Assembly: GCA_902791035.1 (NCBI GenBank)
Contig: CADAUA010000006.1
Span: 80,457 to 144,456 of the forward strand
Source of the DNA: an uncultured Coriobacteriaceae bacterium
GTDB lineage: Bacteria > Actinomycetota > Coriobacteriia > Coriobacteriales > Atopobiaceae
DNA: 64,000 nt
Direction of reading: 5' to 3'
A program made the position numbers and the translations under genes. Under the pieces are notes generated by a model. That model ran no database searches. It was not told where the DNA came from and saw nothing but the letters and a program-made list of their open reading frames with translations. Below are positions 2,066 to 19,901 of this stretch, one piece after another (position 1 is the stretch's first letter; each line of letters begins with the position of its first letter).

Positions 2066-3670
2066 ATGGCAATGCTCAGCAAGAACGATGCCCCCAAGCA
2101 CGCGCCGAAGCACGCCGCGCCCAAGGGCTCCAAGAAGGTAATCGAGAACACCACCAAGGTGGCCAAGGACGCAAAGCCCAAGAAGAAGCATGCCGCGGAG
2201 ACCGTGACCACCGCTAAGCCCGTCGTGCCCGTCGTCCCCGCCGCGACCGTGGCGGATGTGGCCCCCGCCCCCAAGCGCAAGCGCCACCTCTGGGTCATCC
2301 CCGTAGTGGCCGCCGGCATCCTGGGCGCCGCGTACCTGGGTGGCGTCGCGTACTTCTCGAACACCTTCCTCCCCGGGACCACCGTGGACGGCACGTCCGT
2401 CTCGCTCAAGTCCACCGAGGCTCTGGCCGCCCTCAAGAGCTCCACCTACGACGACTACGAGATCCGCGTGCAGGGCGAGGGGCTCGACACGACCGTGAGG
2501 GCCGCCGACATAGACCTCGCCTTCGACGGGTCGGGCTACGCCGCGCGGGCCATGGCCTCCATCGACCCCTGGGCCTGGCCGCTCGAGATCTCGTCCACAC
2601 GGGCGCTCACCGTGGGCCCCGTGGTGACCTACGACCACGACAAGCTCGTCCAGGTCATCCAGACCGCCATCGACGCCGCAGACGCCGCGGCCGACGAGGC
2701 GGGCAAGACCTCCATCGCCTTCGACGCCACGGCCGGGCAGTACACGGCCTCCTCGGCAGCCCTCACCGAACACCTGGACGCGGGCCTCGTGGCCGACACC
2801 GTGGCCACGCACTTTGCCACGCTGGACGAGGTGGCCGAGGTCGGCGCCGACTGCGTGACCGGCGAGTCCGACGTCCGCGCCGCCCTCAACCAGGCCAACA
2901 CCTACGTGGCCTCCACCATCGACGTGACCCTCGGCGGCGAGCACGTGACCGACGTGACGGCCGAGCAGATAGCCGGCTGGGTGAAGATCGGCGACGACCT
3001 GAGCGTGTCCCTCGACACCGCCGCCATCGAGGACTGGTGCCACGGCGAGCTCTCCGACATGACGGACAGCTACCAGACCGAGCGCACCTACACCCGCCCC
3101 GACAACGTGGAGGAGACCGTGACGGGCGGCCGCGGCGTGTACGGCTGGATCATCGACGGCACGACGGCCGCGACCCAGATCGAGGAGGCCCTGGCCACCG
3201 GCCAGCCCTCCACGCTCGACCTCCCCACCAAGAAGCAGGCCGAGACCTACAACCCAGGCGGCCAGGACTGGGGCGACCGCTACATCGACGTGGACATCTC
3301 CGACCAGCACGCGGTCTTCTTCGACGGCGGCCAGGTGATCTGGGAGGCCGATGTGGTGACGGGCCTGCCGGCCGAGAACCGCGACACCCCGCAGGGGGTC
3401 TGGACCATCACCGAGAAGCGCACCGATGCCAACCTCAAGGGCCCGGTGGACCCCGAGACGAACGAGCCCGAGTGGGACTCCCACGTGGACTTCTGGATGG
3501 GCATCGTGGGCACGGCCGTGGGCTTCCACAACGCGCCCTGGCGGTCGGCCTTCGGCGGCACCATCTACCAGTGGAACGGCAGCCACGGCTGCATCAACCT
3601 GAGCTACGAGAAGGGCGAGGCCCTCTACAACCTCTGCAAGGTGGGCGACGTCGTGGTGGTTCACGAATAG
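2066..3670 (+). CDS. Membrane-anchored L,D-transpeptidase (YkuD domain)
   Basis: The ATG at 2066 follows AGAGGTAG. The N-terminus is Lys-rich, followed by a TM segment (LWVIPVVAAGILGAAYLGGVAYF). The C-terminal YkuD catalytic motif is HNAPW...NGSHGCINLS. Confidence 0.8.
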   Translation: MAMLSKNDAPKHAPKHAAPKGSKKVIENTTKVAKDAKPKKKHAAETVTTAKPVVPVVPAATVADVAPAPKRKRHLWVIPVVAAGILGAAYLGGVAYFSNTFLPGTTVDGTSVSLKSTEALAALKSSTYDDYEIRVQGEGLDTTVRAADIDLAFDGSGYAARAMASIDPWAWPLEISSTRALTVGPVVTYDHDKLVQVIQTAIDAADAAADEAGKTSIAFDATAGQYTASSAALTEHLDAGLVADTVATHFATLDEVAEVGADCVTGESDVRAALNQANTYVASTIDVTLGGEHVTDVTAEQIAGWVKIGDDLSVSLDTAAIEDWCHGELSDMTDSYQTERTYTRPDNVEETVTGGRGVYGWIIDGTTAATQIEEALATGQPSTLDLPTKKQAETYNPGGQDWGDRYIDVDISDQHAVFFDGGQVIWEADVVTGLPAENRDTPQGVWTITEKRTDANLKGPVDPETNEPEWDSHVDFWMGIVGTAVGFHNAPWRSAFGGTIYQWNGSHGCINLSYEKGEALYNLCKVGDVVVVHE

Positions 3671-3707
3671 CAATGGGGGTCTGGTTCACGAATAGCAATG
3701 GGGGTCG
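3658..3707. repeat. 25-bp perfect-type tandem duplication (x2) spanning the L,D-transpeptidase stop codon
   Basis: GGTTCACGAATAGCAATGGGGGTC(T/G) occurs at 3658-3682 and again at 3683-3707. The second copy runs into the family-1 palindrome. Confidence 0.9.
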
Positions 3708-3795
3708 GAGCTCGTGTCACGGGGGGTCGGAGCTGCTGTCACGCTCGCGTGGCGTGACAGCAGCTCCGACCCCCCGTGACACGAGCTCCGACCCC
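3701..3795. repeat. Family-1 dispersed repeat: perfect 44-bp inverted repeat built from two 22-nt units (probable bidirectional terminator)
   Basis: The left arm (3701-3744) is the exact reverse complement of the right arm (3752-3795), with a 7-nt loop. Unit consensus is GCGTGACA(C/G)(G/C)AGCTCCGACCCC. It lies between convergent ldt and ffh. Confidence 0.9.
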
Positions 3796-3806
3796 GGGCC
3801 AACCAC

Positions 3807-5213
3807 CTAGCGGCGACGGCCCCGACGGGGCTGGGGCATGCCCATGCCGCCACCCATGCCGCCGCCGTACTGGCGCATCATGGCCTGCATCTGCCGCGAG
3901 GCCTTCTTGTTGCCGCCCTTCATGGCACCGCGCATGGACTTCATCATCTTGGCGATCTCTTCGTACTGCTTGATGAGCTGGTTGACCTCCTGCACGGTGT
4001 GGCCCGAGCCTTGGGCGATGCGGCGGCGACGCTGGCCGTTGATGATCTTGGGCCTGGCGCGCTCCTCCTTGGTCATCGACTGGATGATGGACTCCACCTG
4101 CTTGAGGGCCTTCTCGTCGTTGATGCCGCCCTGCTGCGCGAGGGCGCGCTCGCCGCCCGGCAGCGCCCCGATGATCTTGGTCAGGCCACCCATCTTGCGG
4201 ACCTGCTGCATCTGGGCCAGGAGGTCGTCCATGGTGAAGCCCTCGTTGAGCATGCGCTCGGCGGCTTCCATCTGCTCCTGGTCGGCCACCTTCTGGGCCT
4301 GCTCGATGAAGCTCACCACGTCGCCCATGCCCAGGATGCGCTTGGCCATGCGGTCGGGATGGAAGACCTCGAGCGAGTCGGGCTTCTCGCCCATGGACAC
4401 GAACTTGATGGGCTTGCCCGTGACGGCGCGGACCGAGAGGGCGCCGCCGCCACGCGCGTCGCCGTCCAGCTTGGACATGATCACGCCGTCGAAGTCCGTG
4501 CGGTTGGCGAACTCCGTTACCACGTTGACGATGTCCTGGCCGGTCATGGCATCCACGACCATGAGGATCTGGTCGGGGCGCACGGCCTCCTTGATGGCCA
4601 CGGCCTCCTGCATCATCTCCTCGTCGATCTGCAGGCGGCCGGCCGTGTCCACGATCACGATGTCGCACATGCGGTCCACGGCGGCCTGGATGGACTCGCG
4701 CGCCACCTTGACGGCGTCCTTGCCGTCGCCGCGGTACACGGGCACGCCGATCTCCCCGCCCAGGGTCTGGAGCTGGTCGGCAGCGGCCGGGCGGTGGGTG
4801 TCGCAGGCGGCGAGGAGCGGCGCGTGCTTCTGGCCCTTGAGGAGGTAGGCCAGCTTGGCCGCGGCGGTCGTCTTGCCCGAGCCCTGCAGGCCCACGAGCA
4901 TGATCACGTTGGGCGTGCGGTTCTGGGCCAGGACCAGCTTGGACTCGGTGGAGCCCAGGAGCTCGGTGAGCTCGTCCAGCACGACCCTGACCACGTTCTG
5001 GGCGGGCGAGAGCGACTGCAGGACCTCGGCCGTGAGGCACTTCTCCTTGCAGCGGGCCACGAAGTCCTTGACCACGCGGTAGTTGACGTCGGCCTCCAGG
5101 AGGGCCATCCGCACCTCGCGCATGGCGGAGTTGATGTCGTCCTCCGTGAGGCGGCCCTTGCTGCCGAGCTTGGCGAAGGTGTCCTGGAGGCGCTCGCTCA
5201 GGCTGTTGAACAT
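3807..5213 (-). CDS. ffh: Signal recognition particle protein Ffh
   Basis: NG domain motifs are GLQGSGKTT and DTAGR. A Met-rich M domain and a basic C-terminal tail follow. Confidence 0.95.
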   Translation of the reverse strand: MFNSLSERLQDTFAKLGSKGRLTEDDINSAMREVRMALLEADVNYRVVKDFVARCKEKCLTAEVLQSLSPAQNVVRVVLDELTELLGSTESKLVLAQNRTPNVIMLVGLQGSGKTTAAAKLAYLLKGQKHAPLLAACDTHRPAAADQLQTLGGEIGVPVYRGDGKDAVKVARESIQAAVDRMCDIVIVDTAGRLQIDEEMMQEAVAIKEAVRPDQILMVVDAMTGQDIVNVVTEFANRTDFDGVIMSKLDGDARGGGALSVRAVTGKPIKFVSMGEKPDSLEVFHPDRMAKRILGMGDVVSFIEQAQKVADQEQMEAAERMLNEGFTMDDLLAQMQQVRKMGGLTKIIGALPGGERALAQQGGINDEKALKQVESIIQSMTKEERARPKIINGQRRRRIAQGSGHTVQEVNQLIKQYEEIAKMMKSMRGAMKGGNKKASRQMQAMMRQYGGGMGGGMGMPQPRRGRRR

Positions 5214-5216
5214 GTG

Positions 5217-6125
5217 CTACTTCCCCTCCTCGCCCACGAGCGCGCGGCAGAAGTCCAGCGCGTCGAAGGACTGCAGGTCGTCGATGGACTCGCCCACGCC
5301 GATGCGATAGATGGGCAGGCCCAGCTGGCTGGATATGGCGATGGCGATGCCGCCCTTGGCGGTGCCGTCGAGCTTGGTGACGATAAGGCCGTCCAGGTCC
5401 AGGGCGTCGTTGAACTCCTTGGCCTGGTTGAGGCCGTTCTGGCCGGTGGTGGCGTCGATCACGAGGACCACGGAGACGGGGTACTTGTCGGCGCAGCGCT
5501 TGCGCGTGACGTTCACGACCTTGGCCAGCTCGCGCATGAGGTCGGAGCTGGTGTGGAGGCGGCCCGCCGTGTCGATGAGGACGAGCTCGCTCCCGCGCCT
5601 CTCGGCCTCGTCGATCACGTCGTAGCAGACGCTCGCCGGGTCCGCGCCGCGGCTGCGGGTGACCACGTCCACATCGGCCCGCTGGCCCCAGACCTCCAGC
5701 TGCTCGATGGCTGCCGCGCGGAAGGTATCGGCCCCGCCGATGAGGCAGCGGATGCCGTCGTCCTTGGCGCGACCGGCCAGCTTGCCCACGGTGGTCGTCT
5801 TGCCGGCGCCGTTGATGCCCACGAAGAGCACGCAGGAAGGCAGGCTGGTAAAGGGGTCGCGGCCGGGCGCCGTGAACTCCTGGGCCAGACGCTCGGCCAG
5901 GGCCTTGCGGATCTGCGGGGCGCGCGTGAGGTTCTCGCGGGCGGCCTGCTCGCGCAGGTCGTCCACCACACGCAGGGCCACCTCGCCACCCATGTCGCCC
6001 ATCACGAGAGTGTCCTCGAGGTCCTGCCACCAGTCCTCGTCCACCTCGCCGCCCATGTAGAAGATCTCGTTTATGGCCTCGCGAGACCGCGAGAGGCCGC
6101 GCTTGAGGCTGTCGAAGAAGCCCAT
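5217..6125 (-). CDS. ftsY: SRP receptor FtsY (short form, no acidic A domain)
   Basis: GINGAGKTTT, DTAGRL and TKLDGTAKGG motifs are present. It lies immediately upstream of ffh. Confidence 0.95.
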   Translation of the reverse strand: MGFFDSLKRGLSRSREAINEIFYMGGEVDEDWWQDLEDTLVMGDMGGEVALRVVDDLREQAARENLTRAPQIRKALAERLAQEFTAPGRDPFTSLPSCVLFVGINGAGKTTTVGKLAGRAKDDGIRCLIGGADTFRAAAIEQLEVWGQRADVDVVTRSRGADPASVCYDVIDEAERRGSELVLIDTAGRLHTSSDLMRELAKVVNVTRKRCADKYPVSVVLVIDATTGQNGLNQAKEFNDALDLDGLIVTKLDGTAKGGIAIAISSQLGLPIYRIGVGESIDDLQSFDALDFCRALVGEEGK

Positions 6126-9100
6126 CAGGCGTCCACCACCCTTCCCGTGGCATGGTCGAGGCGCTGGCTCACCACGTGGCTCACGCCGTCGGCCTGCATA
6201 GATACCCCGTAGAGCACGTCCGCCTGCTCCATCGTGCGCCTCTGGTGGGAGATCACGATGAGCTGGGTGGACTCCTTGAGCTGCTCGATGGCATCGAGCA
6301 GGCGCGAGAGGTTGGAGTCGTCGAGGGCGGCCTCAACCTCGTCGAACACGTAGAACGGCACCGTGCGCGTGCGGTACACGGCAAAGAGAAGGGCAAGGGC
6401 CGTGAGGGACCGCTCGCCGCCGCTCATGAGCGTCATCTTCTGGATCTTCTTGCCGCGCGGCTGGGCCACGACCTCCACGCCCGTCTCGGACAGGTGCTCG
6501 GGATCCGTGAGCTCCAGGTGGGCCTGGCCGCCCGGGAAGAGCATGGAGAAGATCTCCGAGAAGTTCTTGTTCACCCGCTCGAAGACCGTGACGAAGCGCG
6601 TGCGCATCTTGCGATCGATGGCGGAGGTGATCTTGCGCAGGGCCACCCGGGCCCGCTCCAGGTCCTCCACCTGGCCGGCGATGTAGTCTGCCCGCTCCTT
6701 GAGGCGGTCGTACTCGTCCATGGCCACCTCGTTCACGGGACCGATGGAGTCCATCTGGCGGCGGAGGTCGGCGGCCAGGCGCTCGGAGCGCTCGCGGTCG
6801 TCGGGCGCGGGGAGCTGGAGGGCCTCGTCGAGCACGGCACCCGTGGCCACGATGCGCTCCACCGCGGCCTGGACCTGGGCCTCCAAGCGGCCCATGTCCA
6901 CCTTGACGGCGTTTGCCGCGGACTTTGCTTCGTCGAGCTCCTTTGTGGCGGCGTCGCGGGCGTCCTTCGCCTCGCCGATCGTGCGCTTGAGGGAGTCCGA
7001 GTCCGCCTCGGCCAGGCTGGCCCGGTCCTTGAGGCGGGCCGCCCACTCCTGGGCGCGGGTGCGGATGGCGTCGTAGCGCGCGTGGAGGGGGTCCACGCGC
7101 AGGCGGACCACGTCGAGCGCGCGGGCGGACTGCTGGGTCTGCTCTATGCGCTGGTCCAGGTCGCGGACGTTGCGCGAGAGGTCCCGCTCGCGGCGCTCCA
7201 GGTTCTGGCGGCGCTCCCCCGTCATGGCCAGCTGGATGCGGCCGTCGGAGAGGTCGTGGGAGGCCTTGCCCTGGGCGTGGATGGCGTCCTCGTGCTGGGC
7301 CCGCACGTCCTCCAGCTGGTGGGCCAGCTCCTCGGCGCGGGCAGTGGCTGCCTTGGCGGCTGCCCGGTGGCCCTCCACCTGACCGCGGGCCCGCTCGGCC
7401 TTCTGGGCCGCAGAGGCGCGCGACCGGGTGACCTGCTCGCGCTCGGAGGTGGCCGAGCTCAGCTGGCCCTCCAGCCGGCCCGACTCGCTGGTCACGGAGC
7501 TGAGCTCGCCCTGGAGGCGCGCTGCCTCGCCCTTGGCCTGGGCCGCGGCGTCGCGGGCGGCGTTAAGGGCGCCCTCGGCGGCGGCCACGGCGGCACCGGC
7601 CTCCTCGAGCGCCTCGCGCTCCCCCGCAAGGCCCGCCTCCAGGGCGCGGATGCGACGCTTGCGCTCGAGGGCGCCCCTCTCGTTCGTGGGGGTGGAGCCC
7701 ACGACCACGCGGCCGTCGGGAAGGACGGTCGAGCCGTCGGCCGCCACGTAGGTGAGGGCGGGGGCCTGGGCATGGGCGGCCACGGCTTCGGCCACCGTGG
7801 CGACCAGGCGCACGTCGCCCAGAAGGGCCTCGATCAGGGGGCGGGACTCCTCGTCCACCCGCAGGCGGGCCACCAGGGACGCACCGGGCGCCCCTTCCAC
7901 GACGGCCCTTGCCGGTGCCGCCTGCGACACGACGACCGCCCGGCCGCCCTTGCGCGCTAGCCTGAGCGCGCCTTGGGCTAGCTCTGCGGCATCCGCGTCC
8001 GAGGCCACCACGAAGGCGGCCAGGTCGTCTCCCAGGAGGCGCTCCACCAAGGGCTCCACCTCGGGGTCCGCGTCCACCAGGTCCGCCACGCGGCAGACCA
8101 CGCGACCCTGGGCCTCGGGGCTCTTGGCCACGGCGGCCACGAGGGGCGAGGCCTTCTCGACGTCCGCGTCCACGGACCGCAGGGCCTTGAGGGTGGCCTC
8201 GGAGCCGTTGAGGCGCGAGCGGGCGTCCTGCTCGGCGCGCCGGGCGTCGCGGAGGGCCGCCTGGAGCTCGGGCACCTTGGCCTGGGCATCGTCCGCGGCG
8301 GCCCGCGCGGTGGAGAGAAGGTCGTCCAGCTCCTCGCGGCGGCGCTCGCGCGCGGCCAGGGCCGCCTGGGCGGTCTCGGCCTGCTCGTCTATCTGGCGCA
8401 GGCGCGAGGCGTACATCTGGTCCTCGACCTCGGCGTTCTTCACCTGCTCCTCGAGGCGGGCGTAGGCCAGGGTCTCGCGGTCGGACTCGTCGCGGGCCGC
8501 GCGCTCCGCCTTCTGGAGCCGGTCGAGCTCGGCGTCGAGCCTGCGCCGGGCGTCCACGGCCTCGCGGCTCGCGCGGGAGAGCTCCTCCACGCGGCCCTTG
8601 AGCTCGCCCTCGCGCGCCCGGGACTCTGCCAGCTGGTCGGCCACGCGGTCGTGGTCGCGCTGGGCGTCCGTGCGCTGCTTGCGCATGGTGGAGAGGCTCA
8701 TCCGCATGTCGGAGAGCCGGGAGACCATGTTCTTGCCCTTCTCCTCCAGGAGGCGCATGTCGGAGTCCATGCGGCCGAGCACGTCCTGCATGTGGCGGCG
8801 CTGCTCGCCCAGGTCCCCCACGAAGAGGCCCTTCTGCTCCAGGAGGGACTGGAGCTTCTCCAGCTCGCGGGACTTCTCGTCCAGGCGGTACTGGGCGAGC
8901 TCCACCGCGGCCTCGGCCTCGCGGCCCCGCACGGAGAGGCGGCCGTACTGGTCCTGGAGCTGGCGGAGGTCGTCCACGGCCAGCTGGGTCGTGACCTCCT
9001 TGAGCTGGCGCTCCAGGTCGTGGGCCCGACGGGCCTTGTCCACCTGGCGCTCCAGGGGCTTGAGCTGGCGGTTTATCTCGCGCTGGAGGACCTTGGCACG

Positions 9101-9667
9101 GGCCAGGTTCTCGTCCATGCCCTTGAGCTTGCGCTCGGAGCGCTCCTTGCGGCGGCGGTGCTTGGAGATGCCGGCCGCCTCCTCCACGAGCTCGCGGCGC
9201 TCCTCGGGGCGGCTCTGGAGGATGGAGTCCAGCTTGCCCTGGGAGATGATGGAGTGGGTCTCCTTGCCCAGGCCAGAGTCGTGCAGGATGTCCTGCACGT
9301 CCAGGAGGCGGCTGGGGGCGCCGTTGATGAGGTACTCGGACTCGCCCGAGCGGTACATCCGGCGGGTGATGGCCACCTCGGCGAAGTCGATGGGGAGGGT
9401 GTGGTCAGTGTTGTCGAGCACGAGGGTGACCTCGGCCACGCCCACGGCCCCGCGGGCGGTGGAGCCCGAGAAGATCACGTCCTCCATGGACTGGCCGCGC
9501 AGCATCTTCGCGCTCTGCTCGCCCAGGACCCAGAGGATGGCGTCCGACACGTTGGACTTGCCCGAGCCGTTGGGGCCCACGACCACGGTGAGGCCGGGGT
9601 CGAAGACCATGACGGTGCGGTCGGCGAAGGACTTGAAGCCCTTGAGGGTGAGCGACTTGAGGTACAC
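6125..9667 (-). CDS. smc: Chromosome partition protein Smc
   Basis: The protein is 1180 aa. It has an N-terminal Walker A (GPNGSGKSN), long coiled coils, a hinge, and C-terminal signature MSGGERSL plus Walker B FYVFDEVEAALD. Its stop overlaps the ftsY start. Confidence 0.95.
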   Translation of the reverse strand: MYLKSLTLKGFKSFADRTVMVFDPGLTVVVGPNGSGKSNVSDAILWVLGEQSAKMLRGQSMEDVIFSGSTARGAVGVAEVTLVLDNTDHTLPIDFAEVAITRRMYRSGESEYLINGAPSRLLDVQDILHDSGLGKETHSIISQGKLDSILQSRPEERRELVEEAAGISKHRRRKERSERKLKGMDENLARAKVLQREINRQLKPLERQVDKARRAHDLERQLKEVTTQLAVDDLRQLQDQYGRLSVRGREAEAAVELAQYRLDEKSRELEKLQSLLEQKGLFVGDLGEQRRHMQDVLGRMDSDMRLLEEKGKNMVSRLSDMRMSLSTMRKQRTDAQRDHDRVADQLAESRAREGELKGRVEELSRASREAVDARRRLDAELDRLQKAERAARDESDRETLAYARLEEQVKNAEVEDQMYASRLRQIDEQAETAQAALAARERRREELDDLLSTARAAADDAQAKVPELQAALRDARRAEQDARSRLNGSEATLKALRSVDADVEKASPLVAAVAKSPEAQGRVVCRVADLVDADPEVEPLVERLLGDDLAAFVVASDADAAELAQGALRLARKGGRAVVVSQAAPARAVVEGAPGASLVARLRVDEESRPLIEALLGDVRLVATVAEAVAAHAQAPALTYVAADGSTVLPDGRVVVGSTPTNERGALERKRRIRALEAGLAGEREALEEAGAAVAAAEGALNAARDAAAQAKGEAARLQGELSSVTSESGRLEGQLSSATSEREQVTRSRASAAQKAERARGQVEGHRAAAKAATARAEELAHQLEDVRAQHEDAIHAQGKASHDLSDGRIQLAMTGERRQNLERRERDLSRNVRDLDQRIEQTQQSARALDVVRLRVDPLHARYDAIRTRAQEWAARLKDRASLAEADSDSLKRTIGEAKDARDAATKELDEAKSAANAVKVDMGRLEAQVQAAVERIVATGAVLDEALQLPAPDDRERSERLAADLRRQMDSIGPVNEVAMDEYDRLKERADYIAGQVEDLERARVALRKITSAIDRKMRTRFVTVFERVNKNFSEIFSMLFPGGQAHLELTDPEHLSETGVEVVAQPRGKKIQKMTLMSGGERSLTALALLFAVYRTRTVPFYVFDEVEAALDDSNLSRLLDAIEQLKESTQLIVISHQRRTMEQADVLYGVSMQADGVSHVVSQRLDHATGRVVDA

Positions 9668-9676
9668 GGCGCCCGC

Positions 9677-10486
9677 CTAGAGGGAGTCTGTGGTGGACGG
9701 CTGGGCCGCCACCTCGCCGTCGGGCCCCACCCGGAGCCTGCCGTGGTCGGTCTGCTGGGCCAGCATGTGGTGGACGTCGCCCAGGCCCTGAGCGGAGCCC
9801 TCGCCCATGCGACGCAGGGCGTCCTCTGCGGCCGCGGCCTCGGAGGCCTTCTTTGACGAGCCGGTGCCACGGCCCACGCGGATGTGGTCCACGAGGACCA
9901 CGCTGGTGAAGGTGGGGTCGTGTGCGGGGCCGGCCTCGGACACCAGCTTGTACTCGGGGGCGCAGTGGAGGTCGCGCTGGGTGACCTCCTGGAGGCGGGA
10001 CTTGGGGCTTATGGGCTTGACGGCCAGGGAGGGCGTCACATAGGGGTCGAGCGTGCGTACCACGAACTCGTGGGTGACCCTGTATCCCGCATCCAGGTAG
10101 AGGGCGCCCACGATTGACTCGTAGACGTTCTCGAGCGCGGAGTGCATGCCGCGCGCGCCGGTGCCGCGCTCGGACTCGCCCATGAGGATGAGGGGACCTA
10201 TGCCCAGGGAGTCCGCCACCTTGGAGAGGGTCTCGCCCGACACGAGCGAGACCTTGAGGCGCGTGAGGGCGCCCTCGTCCATGGCAGGGAAGCGCTCGTA
10301 GAGGTCGGTGGCCACGATCGCGCCCAGGATGGAGTCGCCCAGGAACTCGAGGCGCTCGTAGGAGGCCGAGACGGGCTTGCCCTCCACGGCAGACGGGTGC
10401 GTGAGGGCGCTCTCTATGAGGCTCTTGTCGGCGAACTGGTGGCCGCAGATCCGCTCGACCTCGGCCACCGCCTGGTGCATCTTCAA
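9677..10486 (-). CDS. rnc: Ribonuclease III
   Basis: The RNase III signature ERLEFLGDS and a dsRBD (SRLQE...GSSKKASEAAAAEDAL) are present. A C-terminal extension of about 40 aa follows. Confidence 0.95.
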   Translation of the reverse strand: MKMHQAVAEVERICGHQFADKSLIESALTHPSAVEGKPVSASYERLEFLGDSILGAIVATDLYERFPAMDEGALTRLKVSLVSGETLSKVADSLGIGPLILMGESERGTGARGMHSALENVYESIVGALYLDAGYRVTHEFVVRTLDPYVTPSLAVKPISPKSRLQEVTQRDLHCAPEYKLVSEAGPAHDPTFTSVVLVDHIRVGRGTGSSKKASEAAAAEDALRRMGEGSAQGLGDVHHMLAQQTDHGRLRVGPDGEVAAQPSTTDSL

Positions 10487-10505
10487 GGTATCGTGCCGCC
10501 TAACC

Positions 10506-10745
10506 CTAGCGGGCAGCCATGATGCCGTCGACGGCGTCGCGCACGGTCACGATCTTCTCGAGGGCCTCGTCGTCGAAGGTGAGGTCGAACTCGTCCTCGA
10601 GGGCGGTCACGAGCTCCAGAAGGTCGAACGAGTCCGCGCCCAGGTCCTTGAAGTTGGTGTCCTCGGCAAGCTCGGTGCCCTCCGGCACCTCCAGCGTCTC
10701 GTTGACGACGTCCAGCACCTTGGCGAGCGTCTCCTCGCGATCCAT
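10506..10745 (-). CDS. acpP: Acyl carrier protein
   Basis: I chose the ATG at 10745 because GGAGGAAGCC precedes it. The phosphopantetheine site context is [12 protein letters not shown]. The product is 79 aa. Confidence 0.9.
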
Positions 10746-10845
10746 GGCTTCCTCCATCCCCGGCCTGGTGGCCGTCATGCCCACAGGCCCGCGACCGGCC
10801 CAGCGCCCGCCACGGTCCCACTCGTATACCAGCTGATTCTACCCG

Positions 10846-11835
10846 TTAGGCCCCGGCCTCGCAGGCCTGGGCGATCTTGTCCACGAGCTCGCCGCGAACC
10901 GCCGCGGCCGCAGCGAGCGTGCCGTTCTTTACCGCCTCGGCCGACGTGTTGCCATGGCCCTTGACCACGGGGGCCTTGAGGCCCAGGAGGATCGCACCAC
11001 CATAGGCGTCGCCCGAGATCTCGCCCACCACGGACTTGAGCGGCCCCACGAGCAGGCCCGCCCCCACCTTGGCCTTGAGGGAGCCGGCGGCCGCGGCCTT
11101 GAGGCGGTCCTTGATGAAGCGCCCCGTGCCCTCGATGGTCTTTATCGCCACGTTGCCCGTAAAGCCGTCGGCCACGATCACGTCGAAGGAGTCGCCCAGG
11201 AGGTCGGTGCCCTCGGCGTTGCCCACGAAGCCGCAGTCGCCGGCCGCGAGCGCCGCATGGTAGGCCAGGGCCAGCTCGGAGCCCTTGGTCTCCTCCGCGC
11301 CGTTGCAGAGGAGGCCCACCCGCGGATCCTCCACCCCCAGCGCCACCTGGGCGTAGGCGCGCCCCATGTGGGCGAACTGGACCATGACCTCGGGCTTCAC
11401 GTCGGCGTTTGCCCCCATGTCCAGGAAGACCGTCTTGTGGTCGCCGGGACCCGGGAAGGGCAGGGAGAGCGCCGGGCGCTTGATGCCCTTGATGCGGCCC
11501 ACGCCAAAGGTCGCGGCAGTGAGGACGGCACCCGTGGAGCCTGCGGAGAAGAGCCCGTCGGCCTGGCCCGAGCGCACCGCGGCGGCGGCCCGCACGATCG
11601 AGGCGTCCTTCTTCTGGCGGACGGCGTTTGCCGGGTGCTCCGACATGGTGATGACCTGGGTGGTAACGAGCGGCTGGATGCGGTCGGACTCCTTGACGGC
11701 GGCGGTCACGGCCGACTCGTCGCCGGCAAGAAGGACGGTGAGGTCGGGGTCGGCCGCGAGAGCCAGCTTGACGCCCTCGACGATGACGGAGGGGTCCTTG
11801 TCGGAGCCCATCGCGTCGACGCAGATCGTGGTCAT
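10846..11835 (-). CDS. plsX: Phosphate acyltransferase PlsX
   Basis: The protein is 329 aa with PlsX-type sequence (MTTICVDAMGSD..., GNAEGTD, VKGHG). The plsX-acpP-rnc order is conserved. Confidence 0.95.
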   Translation of the reverse strand: MTTICVDAMGSDKDPSVIVEGVKLALAADPDLTVLLAGDESAVTAAVKESDRIQPLVTTQVITMSEHPANAVRQKKDASIVRAAAAVRSGQADGLFSAGSTGAVLTAATFGVGRIKGIKRPALSLPFPGPGDHKTVFLDMGANADVKPEVMVQFAHMGRAYAQVALGVEDPRVGLLCNGAEETKGSELALAYHAALAAGDCGFVGNAEGTDLLGDSFDVIVADGFTGNVAIKTIEGTGRFIKDRLKAAAAGSLKAKVGAGLLVGPLKSVVGEISGDAYGGAILLGLKAPVVKGHGNTSAEAVKNGTLAAAAAVRGELVDKIAQACEAGA

Positions 11836-12013
11836 GAGTCCTCCAATGCTTGGTAGGGCCCGGTGCCAGCGGGGCCGGGCGCGTGGTGTGTAGATTGCGG
11901 TTGGGTTCCATTATGCCCCAATGCCGGCGCGCAGCGGGTGCGGGGTGGAGGCGCGGGGGTGCGGGGCACTGCGGGGACGGTCGCTCGCACCCGCACCGCG
12001 CACGCATCGCACG

Positions 12014-12052
12014 CAAAAGAGAGGGCCGACCCTCTGCGGGACGGCCCTCTCT
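12014..12052 (-). terminator. Rho-independent terminator downstream of rpmF
   Basis: On the minus strand it reads AGAGAGGGCCG - 13 nt loop - CGGCCCTCTCT, followed by TTTTG. Confidence 0.6.
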
Positions 12053-12091
12053 GGCTGGCTCGTGCAAACGAGGTGCAAACGGGTGCCGAGG

Positions 12092-12271
12092 CTACTCGGT
12101 GACGACGACCTCACGGTCCTTGTAGTAGCCGCAGTTGGGGCACACGTGGTGCGGCAGCTTGGGGGCGCCGCAGCGCGGGCACACGGAACGACCCGGCATC
12201 TCGACCTTGCTGTTCGCCGAACGGCGGCTGTGGGTGGCGCCGCGACCCTTCTTTTGCTTAGGAACTGCCAT
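12092..12271 (-). CDS. rpmF: 50S ribosomal protein L32 (below the ORF-track length cutoff)
   Basis: Hand translation gives MAVPKQKKGRGATHSRRSANSKVEMPGRSVCPRCGAPKLPHHVCPNCGYYKDREVVVTE. This has the L32 N-terminal signature and a CxxC...CxxC zinc ribbon. GAGAGG lies upstream. Confidence 0.9.
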   Translation of the reverse strand: MAVPKQKKGRGATHSRRSANSKVEMPGRSVCPRCGAPKLPHHVCPNCGYYKDREVVVTE

Positions 12272-12477
12272 CTTGAACCTCTCAGACTCTACTCGCGCCC
12301 GCGCGAACCGGGCGTGGGCCTACCTCCAAAAATCATGCAAGGGCTACTATACCACGCAGTCCACAAAAAGCACCCCAATCAAAGGATTTTCACGCGGCGG
12401 GCGAAAAGTCGAGGCTCAGGCGCAAAGCCGCGGGCCGGACTCCGCGGGCGTGCCCCGCCCTGCACGCCTCGAGTGCC

Positions 12478-13041
12478 CTAGTCGTCCAGCTTGAGGTCCT
12501 TGAGGGCCGAGAAGGGACTCGTGCCCATGCGCTCCAGGCGGATCTGCTCCGCGTGGCCGCAGTCCTCCTCGTTGAGGTTGGCGCCGCAGACCGGGCAGAG
12601 CCCCTTGCAGTCGGGCTTGCACAGGACCACGAAGGGCGTCTCCATCACGAGCGTGGTCTGGAGGGCAAGCGACAGGTCCAGCGTGCCGTCGGGGTTGACC
12701 AGCTGGAAGTCGATGTCGTCCTCGTCGTCCTCGTCCTTGTCGCCGGCGGATCCAGCGGGCTCCTCGAAGAGGTAGTACTCGTCCACCTCGCCGTCGATGT
12801 CGAACTCCGCGCGCTCCAGGCAGCGGTCGCACACGCCCACGACGTGCGTGCTCAGCATGCCCGTGACGAGGATGCCCTCGCCGGCGTTGGTGAGCACGAG
12901 GTCGTAGTCGATGCCCTCGGGCAGCTCGAAGTCATGGTCGCCCAGCGAGTAGGCCCTCTCGTCCAGGTGGCCCGCACAGGGCAGGGTGTCGCCCGGGTTG
13001 GCAAGCCTATCGTCGAGCGCGAAGATCACAGGCTGCATCAT
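12478..13041 (-). CDS. DUF177 (YceD-like) protein
   Basis: It is an acidic protein with CDRCL and CxxxCKGLCPxCG motifs. It holds the conserved position directly upstream of rpmF. Confidence 0.85.
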   Translation of the reverse strand: MMQPVIFALDDRLANPGDTLPCAGHLDERAYSLGDHDFELPEGIDYDLVLTNAGEGILVTGMLSTHVVGVCDRCLERAEFDIDGEVDEYYLFEEPAGSAGDKDEDDEDDIDFQLVNPDGTLDLSLALQTTLVMETPFVVLCKPDCKGLCPVCGANLNEEDCGHAEQIRLERMGTSPFSALKDLKLDD

Positions 13042-13044
13042 GCG

Positions 13045-13542
13045 CTACCACGGCACGTTGTTCGTGGTGTTGCGGGGACCGGAGTTCTCGTCCAGGGTCT
13101 GGCGCACGCGCGAGACGGAGCTGCTCAGCGACTTGAGGTTCTCCTCCAGGTGCGCCAGGACCGTGTCGGCGTACTCCTCCGCGTTGTAGCGGGTGTCGCG
13201 CTCATACTGGTCGGCCTTGTCGCGCGTGGCGTCGGCCTGCTGCTGGGCCAGGCGCACGATCTCCTGGTCGCCCGCGAGGATCATGGCCTGCTGCTGGGCG
13301 TCGGCGATGATGCTGTCGGCCTGCTGCTGGGCGCGGTCGAGCGTCTCCTGCTCCTCCTTGAGGATGCGACGCGCGTCCGCGAACTCCTGGGGGAAGACGC
13401 GACGGATCTCGTCGAGGATCTCGTAGACGTCCTGCGAGTCGACGATCTTCTTCTGGCCGCCACCGCCAAAGGGCGACTTGGCCTCCGTGACCATCTGCTC
13501 GAGCTCGTCGATTAGGTTCTCCAACTCCTCGCCTGGCTGCAT
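13045..13542 (-). CDS. Glu/Gln-rich coiled-coil protein, function unknown
   Basis: The ATG at 13542 is preceded by a strong AAAGGAGA. The 165-aa product is predicted to be largely helical (EEQETLDRAQQQADSIIADAQQQA...). I do not recognise the family with confidence. Confidence 0.6.
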   Translation of the reverse strand: MQPGEELENLIDELEQMVTEAKSPFGGGGQKKIVDSQDVYEILDEIRRVFPQEFADARRILKEEQETLDRAQQQADSIIADAQQQAMILAGDQEIVRLAQQQADATRDKADQYERDTRYNAEEYADTVLAHLEENLKSLSSSVSRVRQTLDENSGPRNTTNNVPW

Positions 13543-13769
13543 CCAGGTCTCCTTTCGTAACGGCTGCGCAAACGGACGCGCTGCCGCCCCCGATGCCCAT
13601 TCGTGTAGAGAATACCAGATTGGGACGGCGCGGCCTGCAAAAACGCAGTCTGTGCACGCATATGCCAGCAAGCGGGTGGCGAAAGGCGGAATCGGGAGGG
13701 CCGGCGCTAATGGCGGAAGGCGGCACCGGCGCTCGCACGGGCAACAAGGCCCCGTTGCCGGGGGATCTT

Positions 13770-13839
13770 GGGTGCGGCGTCTCGAGCCGGGCGTCTCGGG
13801 TGCGGCGTCTCGGGCTGGGCGTCTCGGGTGCGGCCCTCT
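13770..13839. repeat. 14-bp (28-bp) tandem repeat, about 5 units, abutting the coaD stop codon
   Basis: The units are GGGTGCGGCGTCTC / GAGCCGGGCGTCTC / GGGTGCGGCGTCTC / GGGCTGGGCGTCTC / GGGTGCGGCCCTCT. The last unit overlaps the coaD stop (13838-13840). Confidence 0.85.
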
Positions 13840-14359
13840 AGCCCTCGTACCTCTCCGCGTAGTGCTCGCGTAGGCAGCGCTCCACGTTGGGCGGCACGAG
13901 GAAGCTCACGTCGGACCCCATGCTGGCGATCTCGCGCACCACCGAAGACGACACGAAGCCGTAGTCCGTGCCCGACATGACGAAGACGGACTCCAGGTCG
14001 GGGTCCAGGTGGCTGTTGAGCCCGGCCTGCTGGAGCTCGTACTCGAAGTCCGTCATGGCGCGCAGGCCCTTGACCACGCCGCCCGCGCCGTGCTGGCGGC
14101 AGAAGTCCACGAGGAGGCCGGTGAAGGGTATGACCTCGATGTCGGAGAGGCCCTCGAGCTCGAGCGCCTCGCGCAGCATGCCGGTGCGCTCCTCGAGCGA
14201 GAAGGTCGTCCCGTGGGCGTGCTTGTTCACACTGGCGGCCACGGCGACCGTGACCTTGGGGAAGAGCCGCGAGGCCCGCCGGATCACGTCTATGTGGCCC
14301 AAGGTGACGGGGTCGAAGGTCCCCGGCACCACCACGTGCGTCACGCGCTCACTGCCCAT
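13838..14359 (-). CDS. coaD: Phosphopantetheine adenylyltransferase
   Basis: The start is MGSERVTHVVVPGTFDPVTLGHID (T/HxGH motif). The product is 173 aa. The 5' end overlaps the rsmD stop by 11 nt. Confidence 0.95.
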   Translation of the reverse strand: MGSERVTHVVVPGTFDPVTLGHIDVIRRASRLFPKVTVAVAASVNKHAHGTTFSLEERTGMLREALELEGLSDIEVIPFTGLLVDFCRQHGAGGVVKGLRAMTDFEYELQQAGLNSHLDPDLESVFVMSGTDYGFVSSSVVREIASMGSDVSFLVPPNVERCLREHYAERYEG

Positions 14360-14939
14360 CCGCTGCCTCCCCTCCCCCGTAGACCGCAAGGTCCACGCAG
14401 GTGATCCCGTGCTTCTTTGTCCTGGCGGGCGCCAGGCCCGCGACGGCCAGGCCCGGGGCCTCCGCCGCGCGCTCGTAGCACACCACGCAGCCAGGGGCCA
14501 GCTGTCCCGAGGCTGCGAGGCCCGCGACCACGGACGATACCACGTCTGCGCCCATGGCGTAGGGCGGGTCGAGGAAGACCACGTGGAAGGGGGCACCGGG
14601 CAGGCCGGACGTGGCCAGGCGCAGGGCGTCGCCGCGCACCACCTGCGTGCGGTCGAGGGCGCCCAGGGCCTTGCAGTTGCGGCGCACTCGGGCGGCCGCG
14701 CCCCTGTCGGCATCCACGAATGTGCAGGTGGCGGCCCCGCGGGAAAGGAGCTCGAGCCCCATGGCGCCCGAGCCGGCAAAGGCGTCGAGCACGTGGGCGC
14801 CCGCCAGGTCCAGGCCGCGCGCCGAGAGGATCATGGAGGCGATGGACTCCCGCATGCGGTCCGTGGTGGGCCGCGTGACGGAGCGCCCGTCCGGCGCCTC
14901 CAGCTGCCTGCCGCGCCACTCCCCGCCAACGATCCTCAT
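14349..14939 (-). CDS. rsmD: 16S rRNA (guanine966-N2)-methyltransferase RsmD
   Basis: The ATG at 14939 follows GAGGAGAGGAGAGGG. Motifs are VLDAFAGSGAMGLE and FLDPPY. The first 15 codons of the track ORF lie inside a family-1 repeat. Confidence 0.9.
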   Translation of the reverse strand: MRIVGGEWRGRQLEAPDGRSVTRPTTDRMRESIASMILSARGLDLAGAHVLDAFAGSGAMGLELLSRGAATCTFVDADRGAAARVRRNCKALGALDRTQVVRGDALRLATSGLPGAPFHVVFLDPPYAMGADVVSSVVAGLAASGQLAPGCVVCYERAAEAPGLAVAGLAPARTKKHGITCVDLAVYGGGEAADGQ

Positions 14940-14964
14940 GCCCTCTCCTCTCCTCACGCCGTCT

Positions 14965-15073
14965 GGGGTCGGAGCTCGTGTCACGCGGGGTCGGAGTTGC
15001 TGTCACGCTCGCCGAGCGCGTGCCATGGGGCGTGACACGAGCTCCGACCCCGCGTGACAGCAACTCCGACCCC
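14965..15073. repeat. Family-1 dispersed repeat, four units (two forward, two inverted)
   Basis: GGGGTCGGAGCTCGTGTCACGC and GGGGTCGGAGTTGCTGTCACGC are followed, after a 22-nt centre, by GCGTGACACGAGCTCCGACCCC and GCGTGACAGCAACTCCGACCCC. It lies between the rsmD start and the recG stop. Confidence 0.9.
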
Positions 15074-15087
15074 AGGCGTCACGGGCG

Positions 15088-17250
15088 TCACGCACGCTCG
15101 AGCTCGTCGAAGTATGCCCCAAAGCGGTCGCGCACCTCAAGGGCGCACGTGATGTGCTCCGGCCGTGCGAGCCCCGGGTCGCCCGCCGTGATGGCCCGCG
15201 CATCGTCGTGCGCCCACTGCACCAGGTCCTTGTCAGCATCCAGGTCAGCCACGACCAACGGCACCGACCCGCTCTGCCTGTAGCCCAGCACCTCGCCCTC
15301 CCGGCGTAGCTTGAGGTCGAGCTCCGCGAGCTCGAAGCCGTCGGTCGTGCGCTCGAGCGCGGCCAGGCGCTGGCGGGCCGGCGAGTCCTTCCTTGCCGCG
15401 CACTCCAGCCACACCGTGCCCGCCGCGTCGCCCCTGCCCACGCGTCCGCGCAGCTGATGTAGGGTGGCCAGGCCAAAGCGGTCCGCGTCGCGCACCAGCA
15501 TGGCCGTGGCGTTGGGCACGTCCACGCCCACCTCGATCACGGTCGTGCACACGAGGACCCGCACGCGCCCGGCACGGAAGTCGTCCATCACGGAGTCCTT
15601 GTCGGCAGCTCCCATCCGCCCGGTGAGGAGCGCGCAGCGCACGTCCGGCAGGAGCCGGCCCACCTCCTCGAGCGTCCGCGTGGCAGAGTGGGGCTTGGCG
15701 GCGCCGGACTTGACCGAGTCGGGCACGTCGTCGAGGTCAGCACCGTCGTCGGCGTCATCCACGAGGGGGCAGACCACGTAGGCCTGGTACCCCGCGTCGA
15801 GCGCCTCGCGGATGCCACCCCAGGCGAGGTCCAGGTTCTCGGGCGCGAGCACGTGGGTCTCCACGCCTGCCCCGGCGCGCGGGCGGTGGCGGATGCGGGA
15901 GACCTCTACGTCGCCGTAGAGCGAGAGGGCCAGCGTGCGCGGGATGGGCGTGGCCGTCATGGCCAGGAGGTCCGCCCCCGCCCCCTTGCGGCGCAGGGCC
16001 GCGCGCTGGTCCACGCCAAAGCGGTGCTGCTCGTCGATGACCACGAGCGAGAGGGCCGAGAAGTCCATGTCGTCCCCGAGGACCGCCGTGGTGCCGAAGA
16101 CCACCGTGAGCTCGCCTCGGGCCAGGGCGGAGGAGGTGAGGGCGCGCTCGTCGGACGGCGTGGCGCCCGTGACGAGCGCCCAGCGCACGTACGCGCGGGT
16201 GAGGAGGGGACCGACCTTCTCCGCGTACTGGCGCGCCAGGACCGAGGTGGGCGCCATGACGGCTGCCTGGGTCCCGGTGTCGGCCACCGCCGCCAAGGCC
16301 ACGGCCGCCACGGCGGTCTTCCCGGTGCCGACGTCGCCCAGGAGCAGGCGGTTCATCACGTGGGGCGAGGCCATGTCGGCCAGGATCTCCCGGCAGGCGG
16401 CCTCCTGCTCGTCGGTGAGCGAGAAAGGCAGCGCCGCACGGAGGGCCTCCACGTGGGGGCCGTCCGTCACATGGGCCGTGGGCACGACGTCCGCGAGCTC
16501 GATCGTGCGGCGCGAGAGAAGGGCCAGCTGCAGGGCCAGGAGCTCGTCGTAGGCCAGGCGGCGGCGGGCGTCCTCGGCCGCGGCGGGCGTGGGCGGGAAG
16601 TGGACCTCGCGCAGGGCCCGACCCTCGCCCATAAGGCGGCGGCGCGCCACGAGGGGCGCCGGCACCCAGTCCGCGACGTCGCCCAGGTCGCCGAGCGCCG
16701 TGCTCACGTAGCGGCGCATCATGCCGTCCGACACACCCTCGGTGAGCGGGTAGTGGGGCAGGACGCGGGCATAGCGGCCCTCGCGGGCAGCCTTGGCGTC
16801 GAGGACCTCCAGGTAGGGGCCGCGCATCTGCTTGAAGCCATAGGCGAAGGTCACCTTGCCGGAGAGCGCCACCACGTCGCCGGGGTGGACCTTGTCGGCG
16901 AGCCAGGGCTGGCGGAAGAAGGACGCCTCTATCACGCCGGTCTCGTCGAAGGCGTAGACCTCCACTACCTGCATGCGGGGGCGGGGGCGCTTGAGGAGGA
17001 CCTTGTCGACCGTGACCTTGAGGGTGGCCTCGGAGCCCACGTCCGCCATGGCCACCGTGGTGGGGTGGGAGAAGTCGTCGTAGCGGCGCGGCACGTGGAG
17101 CAGGAGGTCGCGCACGCGCCGGATGCCCATGCGGGCGAGCGCCTCGGCCCGGGCGCCCTTGACGAAGCGCACCCGCTCCACAGAGTCCGAGAGGGCGCAG
17201 GTCCGCTGCACCCTCTCGCTTGCCGCTCCTATGTTCGGGCGCGTGCCCAT
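15088..17250 (-). CDS. recG: ATP-dependent DNA helicase RecG
   Basis: The ATG at 17250 follows GGAGGAG. A wedge/OB region is followed by helicase motifs GDVGTGKT and DEQHRFG, giving 720 aa. The 1308-aa track ORF is a read-through of the frame into the next gene. Confidence 0.95.
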   Translation of the reverse strand: MGTRPNIGAASERVQRTCALSDSVERVRFVKGARAEALARMGIRRVRDLLLHVPRRYDDFSHPTTVAMADVGSEATLKVTVDKVLLKRPRPRMQVVEVYAFDETGVIEASFFRQPWLADKVHPGDVVALSGKVTFAYGFKQMRGPYLEVLDAKAAREGRYARVLPHYPLTEGVSDGMMRRYVSTALGDLGDVADWVPAPLVARRRLMGEGRALREVHFPPTPAAAEDARRRLAYDELLALQLALLSRRTIELADVVPTAHVTDGPHVEALRAALPFSLTDEQEAACREILADMASPHVMNRLLLGDVGTGKTAVAAVALAAVADTGTQAAVMAPTSVLARQYAEKVGPLLTRAYVRWALVTGATPSDERALTSSALARGELTVVFGTTAVLGDDMDFSALSLVVIDEQHRFGVDQRAALRRKGAGADLLAMTATPIPRTLALSLYGDVEVSRIRHRPRAGAGVETHVLAPENLDLAWGGIREALDAGYQAYVVCPLVDDADDGADLDDVPDSVKSGAAKPHSATRTLEEVGRLLPDVRCALLTGRMGAADKDSVMDDFRAGRVRVLVCTTVIEVGVDVPNATAMLVRDADRFGLATLHQLRGRVGRGDAAGTVWLECAARKDSPARQRLAALERTTDGFELAELDLKLRREGEVLGYRQSGSVPLVVADLDADKDLVQWAHDDARAITAGDPGLARPEHITCALEVRDRFGAYFDELERA

Positions 17251-17293
17251 CCTATGGCAGCTCCTCCGTTGCCTCCCGCCTGCCGGCGTCAAA

Positions 17294-17347
17294 GCGTGAC
17301 ACAAGCTCCGACCCCGCGTGACACGAGCTCCGACCCCGCTGTCACGC
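17294..17347. repeat. Family-1 dispersed repeat, two direct units plus a short inverted tail
   Basis: GCGTGACACAAGCTCCGACCCC GCGTGACACGAGCTCCGACCCC GCTGTCACGC. It ends 2 nt from the stop codon of the DAK2 gene. Confidence 0.9.
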
Positions 17348-17348
17348 G

Positions 17349-19037: not shown

Positions 19038-19122
19038 TTCGTAGGGACCTCGGTTCCTTCTCGGCGCTCTGTGTGAGATTGCGGGCCGCGCGCGTGGCCC
19101 GCGGGCCACGCGGCCGGGCCGG

Positions 19123-19808: not shown

Positions 19809-19836
19809 TTGTGCGCGCTTTTCTGTGTGCTATATT
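19809..19836 (+). promoter_or_regulatory. Candidate sigma-70-type promoter for rpmB
   Basis: TTGTGC (19809-19814), a 16-nt spacer, then TATATT (19831-19836), in a locally AT-richer patch about 65 nt upstream of rpmB. This is a sequence-only guess. Confidence 0.35.
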
Positions 19837-19901
19837 CATACGGCTGTGATTCGAAACCGGGAGCGGGGCGCCGCGCCCATTCGCGCCCATGGAGGTAAGT
19901 C

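Follow-up and report, generated by a model that had tools for sequence, protein, structure and literature searches.

The window analysed here, a stretch of 64,000 nucleotides (contig CADAUA010000006.1, positions 80,457 to 144,456, assembly GCA_902791035.1), comes from an uncultured rumen bacterium of the Atopobiaceae (Coriobacteriia; about 68% G+C) and carries between its genes a dispersed repeat, here called Family-1, built from a 22-nt unit, GCGTGACASSAGCTCCGACCCC. The genes adjoining its copies are a ykuD-like gene and ffh; the rsmD, recG and dak2 genes of a dak2-recG-rsmD-coaD operon; rpmB and a HAD-TPK gene; a lysR-type gene and an hsp90 gene; and an ABC-transporter gene. Gene calls were taken from contigs of the same organism, and with its flanks the window forms a contiguous readable stretch of 80.4 kb (about -8.9 kb to +71.4 kb in window coordinates). 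Family-1 is a real, lineage-specific family inserted at gene boundaries, including two coupled or overlapping junctions, and is itself previously unreported; no description of interspersed repeats in Coriobacteriia was found in the literature searched. The RecG of the host is 100% identical to itself only, the next matches standing at 71-74% (Olsenella, Thermophilibacter and Atopobiaceae by name), and proteins of the window also occur on ENA metagenome contigs, including those of the cattle-rumen assemblies STEW18 and STEW19.

The 22-nt unit and its arrangement

All six dispersed loci of the 22-mer that an earlier note on this DNA had listed are confirmed, as the unit has 14 matches in the window at no more than 3 mismatches, against a mean of 0.02 in 100 dinucleotide-preserving shuffles, not one of which reached 14. 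These are spread over the loci, here lettered A to F, as 4, 4, 2, 1, 1 (plus a 19-nt partial copy) and 2 units, and all six loci lie between called genes, which has a chance probability of about 5e-6 given an intergenic share of 13% in the window. Searching with an nhmmer profile of the unit brought up no further significant copies in the window, and no old, decayed copies in the window, its flanks or the relatives. Family-1 copies are absent between 20.2 and 46.9 kb. Matches with 4 mismatches at 54705 and 55415 lie within genes and were judged to be chance, and a 15-nt repeat containing AGCTCCG (23164-23228) is unrelated, being part of the rsmB coding sequence. The scarcity of GTGACA in coding DNA was rejected as a sign of function, since codon usage accounts for it, together with the stop codon that one frame contains.

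About 28 units, from the window, both flanks and the metagenome contig L005, could be aligned. Two blocks are near-invariant (positions 1-8, GCGTGACA, and positions 11-22, AGCTCCGACCCC), positions 9-10 are dimorphic (CG, or CA, versus GC) and position 12 is either G or A. Units of one array have private variants in common. A single 22-mer folds at -1.0 kcal/mol (z = 0.18), so that the unit alone is without a fold. The modular structure described in the earlier note, in which units stand singly, as direct pairs or as inverted pairs, is borne out and is strictly intergenic, with the addition that the repeat exceeds the 22-mer: an inverted half-unit, (GC)TGTCACGC, closes some elements, and a module of about 32 nt is present at loci C and F. 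Complete elements measure about 90-110 nt and come in two architectures, which we call P-type and D-type.

In P-type elements, found at three of nine loci (A, B and one in the left flank), two units are inverted with respect to two others and form a hairpin with arms of 44-49 bp. Each arm comprises one CG-type and one GC-type unit and is thus a dimer rather than a single unit. Locus A (3701-3795) has two minus-strand units (3701-3744) and two plus-strand units (3752-3795) on either side of a 7-nt spacer (3745-3751), and is flanked by the convergent stop codons of the ykuD-like gene (3668-3670, plus strand) and ffh (3807-3809, minus strand). The exact 44+44-nt hairpin between convergent genes reported there earlier is indeed present, the arms being 100% complementary over 44 nt, with a DNA fold of -68.9 kcal/mol (z = -17). 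Both outer units of locus A show the same private variant, C at position 1, and matching private variants on both arms also characterize the hairpin of the left-flank contig L015 (16400-16497; 2+2 units; -66.2 kcal/mol, z = -15.6), which lies in the gap between FBPase and ftsH, downstream of FBPase_2. Locus B (14948-15092) is an imperfect inverted doublet with units at 14965-15008 (minus) and 15030-15073 (plus), separated by 21 nt and bordered on both outer sides by partial half-units; its 49-nt arms are 86% complementary, the unit variants being in swapped order, and fold at -56.2 kcal/mol (z = -7.3). It spans the 148 nt from the recG stop (15088-15090, the TGA within GCGTGA) to the rsmD start (14939).

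D-type elements (loci C, D and F, with E degenerate) are made of direct units closed by the inverted half-unit, which pairs with the last GCGTGACA; at C, D and F only the last direct unit and this half-unit take part in the stem, of 7-8 bp. Locus C (17256-17347, plus strand) is formed by a 5' module (17256-17284), two direct units (17294-17337) and the half-unit GCTGTCACGC (17338-17347), and fills the 98 nt that separate dak2 (stop TAG, 17349-17351) from recG (start 17250). Locus F (51133-51232, plus strand) likewise has a module (51133-51160), two identical units (51165-51208) and a tail, GCGTGTCACGGACCCCTGTCACGC (51209-51232), whose terminal GCGTGA provides the minus-strand ABC-transporter gene with its TGA stop (51227-51229); its fold has a z of -3.2. 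The module of about 32 nt at these two loci, gRCAGCT(C)CTCCGTTGCC.C.CGCCTGCC, stands at equal distance and in equal orientation, carries a Shine-Dalgarno-like GGAG(G)AG, and brings the composite elements to 92 nt (C) and 100 nt (F). Locus D (20147-20177, minus strand) is a single unit (20156-20177) with its closing half-unit (20147-20155), forming a hairpin with a 7-bp stem; it lies between two convergent genes, rpmB (plus strand), which has at about 20117-20147 a T-tract terminator of its own, and HAD-TPK (minus strand), and the GCGTGA of its unit contains the TGA stop of the latter (20172-20174). Locus E (46885-46948, plus strand) is a degenerate direct repeat, with a 19-nt partial copy (46885-46903), a unit with 2 mismatches (46904-46925) and a tail, ATGTCGCGGACCCCCTGTCGCGG, between the convergent lysR-type (stop 46874-46876) and hsp90 (stop 46956-46958) genes.

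The family is not confined to the window, contrary to the outcome that the earlier note had named as refuting it. Three further loci stand in the flanks, making nine in 80.4 kb, or about one per 9 kb (roughly one per 10 kb in the earlier note): the P-type hairpin on L015 described above, a 5-unit direct array in a divergent promoter region (L015 18489-18598), and locus G, a 3-unit variant array after an ABC2 permease gene (L059 20716-20808) with a 29/34-nt period and repetitive linkers of 7-12 nt. Direct arrays have little or no structure (z of -1.2 to -3.2), and the 5-unit and 3-unit arrays are both without an inverted partner and without significant structure. A CRISPR array was considered and rejected, as the units abut (the period of 22 equals the unit length) and only the 7-12-nt repetitive linkers separate them at locus G. 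Contig L005 (OMUP01000089.1; 5.7 kb, of high G+C) adds an array at one end and an internal variant locus. It is filed in a rumen 'Lachnospiraceae' metagenome-assembled genome (hRUG884), probably through a binning error. Exact-pattern scans of 185,579 species genomes (one genome per species, the source genome itself not among them), of JGI metagenomes and of viral contigs returned, apart from L005, only isolated single chance matches in unrelated taxa.

Artefacts of assembly can be discounted, since other samples, assembled independently, have the same sequences at the Family-1 loci. Contigs L017 and L005 break off inside Family-1 arrays, as a true dispersed repeat would predict; repeats of this kind interrupt metagenome assemblies and, as in the case of L005, cause mis-binning. 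Rfam gave nothing at gathering threshold; mir-1294, reported at locus A in E-value mode (59.9 bits against a cut-off of 90), was dismissed as an artefact of any long hairpin. The array strand that is free of stops was translated and searched against a set of 5.8 billion proteins for spurious open reading frames (ORFs) running through copies, without a match at E <= 10.

Filled and empty sites, and the stop codons of neighbouring genes

The earlier note had placed copies between the co-directional genes recG and rsmD, and dak2 and recG, which is correct (loci B and C), and had proposed orthologous intergenic regions as a check on mobility. We compared these junctions with those of four relatives with 71-74% RecG identity (L056/L057; L058, which is Olsenella uli or O. 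uli; L071; L072). The gap between dak2 and recG is 3, 3, 12 and 3 nt in the four relatives as against 98 nt in the host, and recG and rsmD overlap by ATGA in all four, where the host has a gap of 148 nt. Both host gaps consist of the elements themselves, and the extra DNA at locus C (about 94 nt) is an almost exact match to the 92-nt composite element. The Family-1 copies are therefore derived insertions, the orthologous sites being empty in four relatives. The conserved C-termini of RecG and Dak2 are retained despite the insertions, so that the operon offers an unusually clean case of filled versus empty sites in which elements enter overlapping stop/start junctions of housekeeping genes and leave both genes intact.

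What the insertions bring to these junctions can be read from their edges. The module of locus C puts GGAGGAG 11 nt upstream of the recG ATG, and an internal ORF of 18 codons stops 40 nt before the recG start and is not coupled to recG. At locus B, a purine-rich GAGGAGAGGAGAGGG stands ahead of the rsmD ATG, a GTG overlapping the recG TGA begins an ORF of 36 codons through the insert, and the TGA of that ORF overlaps in turn a GTG in frame with rsmD. The stop/start-overlapping ORF of locus B may mirror what has been described for mycobacterial interspersed repetitive units, or MIRUs (PMC12548453, PMC3184786), an analogy that counts two cases and could be due to chance.

The association with stop codons extends to the family as a whole, eight of the nine loci lying 0-11 nt from one. 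TAG dominates among the stops of the window, TGA ending just 8 of 51 called genes. (Such dominance of TAG is unusual for a genome of 68% G+C, and L056 and L058 lean the same way.) Three genes in the window end in GCGTGA (recG, HAD-TPK and the ABC transporter), and they are exactly those abutted by a unit; TGA is the stop of three of the four unit-abutted genes (hypergeometric p of about 0.01). The O. uli orthologue of the ABC gene at locus F ends in GCG TAG and has no element there. In L056, the same ABC gene and coaD end in the TGA of that genome's own repeat, TGACAGAGGGGAC. The stop-codon pattern, as read from these gene ends, points to insertion at or over the stop codon, which could reflect either an enzyme with a target preference or priming on GCGTGA-like gene ends, two routes that are not separable here. 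An element TGA fused to the last sense codon, in a genome that prefers TAG, allows insertion-site specificity to be tested.

Related species have families of their own, of unrelated sequence and of the same architecture. L056 carries a 29-nt unit, TGACAGAGGGGAC...TCTGTCA, closed by an inverted half-unit (3354-3380, 5744-5770 and 13257-13331), O. uli carries direct as well as inverted blocks in which a 31-nt unit is arrayed (13279-13533 and 15179-15871), and in L071 rsmD (ending in TGA) and coaD are separated by a palindrome of about 130 nt (5208-5340), which a Shine-Dalgarno-like sequence follows. The spot after coaD is occupied by a different repeat in each of three species, and several of the relatives' repeats provide the TGA stop of the adjoining gene. 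Species-specific sequence combined with a common architecture is the pattern of co-evolving systems of repeat and mobiliser, such as REPINs (doublets of repetitive extragenic palindromic, or REP, sequences) and their REP-associated tyrosine transposases, or RAYTs (PMC3337134, PMC5581495). The rpmB gene beside locus D (encoding L28; 19902-20090), convergent with HAD-TPK in the host, has the opposite orientation in L056 and L058.

A proposed mobile repeat and its alternatives

On balance we lean, with some reserve, towards Family-1 being a lineage-specific, non-coding and non-autonomous mobile repeat of REPIN/MIRU-like character, akin to REP/REPIN sequences, bacterial interspersed mosaic elements (BIMEs), MIRUs and BOX elements. 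The earlier note had called the repeats REP-like, which fits their genomic behaviour and fails for the unit itself. REPINs consist of two REPs in inverted orientation, which form a hairpin, and are found in tandem arrays as well (PMC3337134). Family-1 resembles the REP/REPIN group (PMC3337134, PMC3116915, PMC5581495) in its length of about 20 nt, its over-representation, its extragenic and species-specific distribution, its inverted-doublet hairpins of about 90-110 nt next to singlets and tandem arrays, and the lack of both an obvious target duplication and a self-encoded transposase. It differs in its unit, which lacks a palindromic core, in its arms, each a dimer of two unit variants, in its direct arrays of up to 5 bare units, its overlap with stop codons and its sites within operons, and in having an actinobacterium as host with no RAYT found in the 80 kb.

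As far as they are summarised in two later accounts (PMC3184786, PMC12548453, drawing on Supply et al. 1997), MIRUs lie between the genes of operons, with ends overlapping the adjoining ORFs and with empty as well as filled sites. Family-1 shares with them an actinobacterial host, tandem units between genes of the same operon, empty and filled sites, copy-number variation between strains (of one array) and possibly ends that overlap the stop and start codons of neighbours (here the GTGA overlaps of locus B), but its unit is 22 nt long rather than 40-100, many of its elements are inverted doublets between convergent genes, the internal ORF of locus C is uncoupled from the gene downstream, and the sequences have no similarity. 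Like BOX of S. pneumoniae and BIMEs of E. coli (PMC3184786), its elements combine an end module, variable tandem units and a closing module, are intergenic and would presumably be mobilised in trans; the Family-1 module is, however, much shorter and of unrelated sequence, and its units run head to tail where BIMEs alternate REP orientation with defined linkers. The unit of Family-1 measures 22 nt, the modules of BOX 45-59 nt.

If Family-1 is such a mobile repeat, a trans-acting enzyme might spread copies through single-stranded hairpin DNA and without target duplications, as RAYT or IS200/IS605-type enzymes do; alternatively, spread might proceed by template switching primed on GCGTGA-like gene ends. 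Insertions within operons would be tolerated because the element comes with one or more of the following: a stop codon (TGA, within GCGTGA), stop/start overlaps of GTGA type, a ribosome-binding site. Consequences for the host (a stabiliser of mRNA 3' ends, a weak terminator, GTGACA as a -35 hexamer) would be by-products and not the reason for the family's existence. No transposase-like Pfam family was identified in any called gene across the 80 kb, which fits a non-autonomous element served by a distant gene.

Several observations weigh against a mobile repeat of this kind. Neither a consistent target-site duplication nor a flanking target motif was found across loci, and no mobilising enzyme was found within the 80 kb. 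The RAYT groups of one survey come mainly from Proteobacteria, Cyanobacteria, Clostridia and other classes, Actinobacteria being unmentioned in its main text (PMC5581495). The folding test detects no palindromic core in the 22-nt unit, which sets it apart from REPs, and a hairpin is not obligatory at every locus, since the 5- and 3-unit arrays are unpartnered and unstructured. Comparison of strains with 99.5-100% identity showed a single change of copy number, and no locus that was gained or lost as a whole. Finally, the near-invariance of the unit outside positions 9-10 and 12 could reflect the constraint of a binding protein.

This last point leads to an alternative that we regard as unlikely, in which the arrays are binding sites of a host DNA-binding protein (nucleoid-associated, a global regulator or of iteron type), the 22-bp spacing setting GTGACA and AGCTCCGACCCC on one face of the helix, and dispersal is secondary. 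It would account for 20 of 22 positions being near-invariant over some 28 units, with variation concentrated at 9-10 and 12, for a 22-bp period close to two helical turns, and for the unstructured direct arrays, which make sequence and not the hairpin the common denominator; a second palindrome family of this genome is moreover centred on GTGACA|TGTCAC. The 5-unit array lies in the divergent promoter region, where its last GTGACA precedes by 18 nt a TATACT that stands 34 nt upstream of the FBPase_2 start, the only promoter-like site in 2.4 kb; this is in keeping with such a protein, and also with a promoter that has possibly arisen there as a by-product. A conserved regulon is nevertheless contradicted by the empty orthologous positions in four relatives and by the absence of the motif from the scanned species genomes (except on the mis-binned contig), and most copies sit at 3' ends, between convergent genes or in operons instead of at promoters. 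Near-identity among loci indicates recent copying rather than long conservation, the period at locus G is 29 or 34 nt, and the relatives' repeats share the architecture with unrelated sequences. We find it more doubtful still that the hairpins are under selection at the RNA level, as bidirectional terminators or stabilisers of mRNA 3' ends, even though those of locus A and downstream of FBPase_2 are very stable, eight of nine loci begin within 11 nt of a stop codon, and other bacteria are known to use co-opted REP hairpins for attenuation or termination (PMC3337134). Family-1 does resemble intrinsic terminators in having G+C-rich hairpins just past stop codons, some between convergent genes, and differs from them in stems of 44 bp, which are far longer, and in lacking a U/T tract. 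No T-tract follows the hairpins at any locus (the sequences following them include GGGCCAACC and CATTGCTA), and a consensus scan of 3000-21000 and the left flank detected no terminator-like site at Family-1 loci. Moreover, loci B and C, which are strongly or partly structured, lie inside an operon whose genes are coupled in relatives, a place at which ending transcription would do harm; units face either way with respect to transcription, two direct arrays lack significant structure, and locus D adjoins a canonical T-tract terminator that is separate from it and belongs to rpmB. The missing T-tract, the copies in an operon and in a promoter region, and the two orientations leave a general role in termination unsupported. 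Of the bidirectional termination that the earlier note had envisaged at the 3701 hairpin, what stands is that hairpins between convergent genes could stabilise or end transcripts.

Transposition by a conventional element is a further possibility, to which we give little credence: an insertion sequence (IS) with a DDE transposase, elsewhere in the genome, would be bounded by GGGGTCGGAGCT...GTCACGC repeats and fixed-length duplications, and the copies would be its deletion derivatives, of the kind known as miniature inverted-repeat transposable elements (MITEs), or its solo terminal inverted repeats. P-type elements do have the appearance of a pair of terminal inverted repeats set almost directly against each other, their outer end (GGGGTC...) is similar to the GGGG start of Tn3-family terminal repeats, and the stop codons on both sides of the inserts at B (TGA/ATGA; GTGA...ATGA) and C (TAG/TAG; TAG...TAG) could be target duplications of 3-4 nt, for which they are suggestive only. 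No fixed flanking direct repeat is consistent at loci A, D and F and the L015 hairpin (16400-16497), however, direct 22-nt tandem arrays are unexpected from terminal inverted repeats, D-type elements lack such repeats altogether, and the 80 kb contain no transposase gene. A BLAST search with locus A gave no match among 72,556 plasmids and a single 24-nt chance match (E = 0.3) among 50,697 phage records, and the species-genome scans returned chance singles only; nothing, then, favours the fragments of a known IS terminal repeat that the earlier note had considered. Equally improbable, in our estimation, is an origin with no transposition at all, Family-1 being a dispersed minisatellite produced by slippage, template switching and gene conversion between GCGTGA-like seeds. 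In its favour are a copy-number change in steps of 22 nt between strains, tandem duplications at the borders of loci A (25 bp) and B (9 bp), other tandem families that vary among near-identical strains, and gene ends of relatives that resemble the start of the unit (GCATGA in recG, GCGTAG in the ABC gene). Yet slippage offers no source for a first copy at each of nine loci, the insert at locus C is explained in full by one discrete composite of about 92 nt, and the inverted doublets with matching private variants speak for copying of a defined unit.

A broader form of the mobile-repeat reading is conceivable, and we offer it as speculation that is considerably more likely to fail than to hold. 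Atopobiaceae would host a new class of small mobile repeats with TGACA...TGTCA-type stems, which insert precisely at stop or stop/start junctions and replace the native stop (usually TAG) with their own TGA, and whose GTGA overlaps or ribosome-binding site let zero-length coupled junctions be colonised; each species would have its own fast-evolving family, moved by an enzyme or a template switch not yet linked to such repeats in Actinomycetota. Were Family-1 a mobile repeat, selfish repeats of REP/REPIN/MIRU type would extend to Coriobacteriia.

Strain variation and other repeats of the genome

The 5-unit array of L015 has 5 units in two samples and 3 in the near-identical STEW19 rumen strain, a difference of 44 nt, and is thus a possible strain marker for this rumen organism; the remaining Family-1 loci are invariant among the available strains. 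An exact 25-bp tandem duplication, TGGTTCACGAATAGCAATGGGGGTC (3657-3706, plus strand; 2.0 copies, 100% match), spans the stop of the ykuD-like gene and the first bases of locus A, and it must postdate the insertion of locus A, as it includes both the stop codon and the start of the element. The edge of locus B (15075-15092) has an exact 9-bp tandem duplication over the stop codon. These border duplications may have arisen by slippage beside hairpins, with which they are consistent.

The genome is unusually rich in intergenic repeats from several unrelated families. Four intergenic tandem repeats (22199-22456, 42915-43040, 36169-36588 and about 50599-50879, with units of 21, 19, 115 and about 115 nt) vary among strains that are 99.5-100% identical, the shifts in copy number amounting to -21 nt in L061, +38 nt in L062, and +115 nt in both L064 and L060. 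Further short tandem repeats, with units of 11-28 nt, lie at 13757-13834, 21990-22451, 40564-40607, 41503-41597, 59043-59113 and 59281-59365. The second palindrome family, CACCTGCAGGTGACA|TGTCACTTGCAGGTG, is found at 57383-57410, 57477-57516, 59120-59150 and 59220-59253, in pairs about 100 nt apart that flank a GH1 glycosidase gene, and could be an operator or another mobile element. A repeat-rich island of low G+C (about 40-48 kb, G+C 0.64) includes a gene region (43431-44555) with a weak match to the REase_MTES_1575 / DUF559 endonuclease-like domain. Near the end of the window, the TetR/ABC2-permease region after metK is replaced or strongly diverged in the STEW18 strain L060 (14923-19069, against window positions 60598-64000), part of it aligning at 82% where the remainder of the locus stands at 99.5%.

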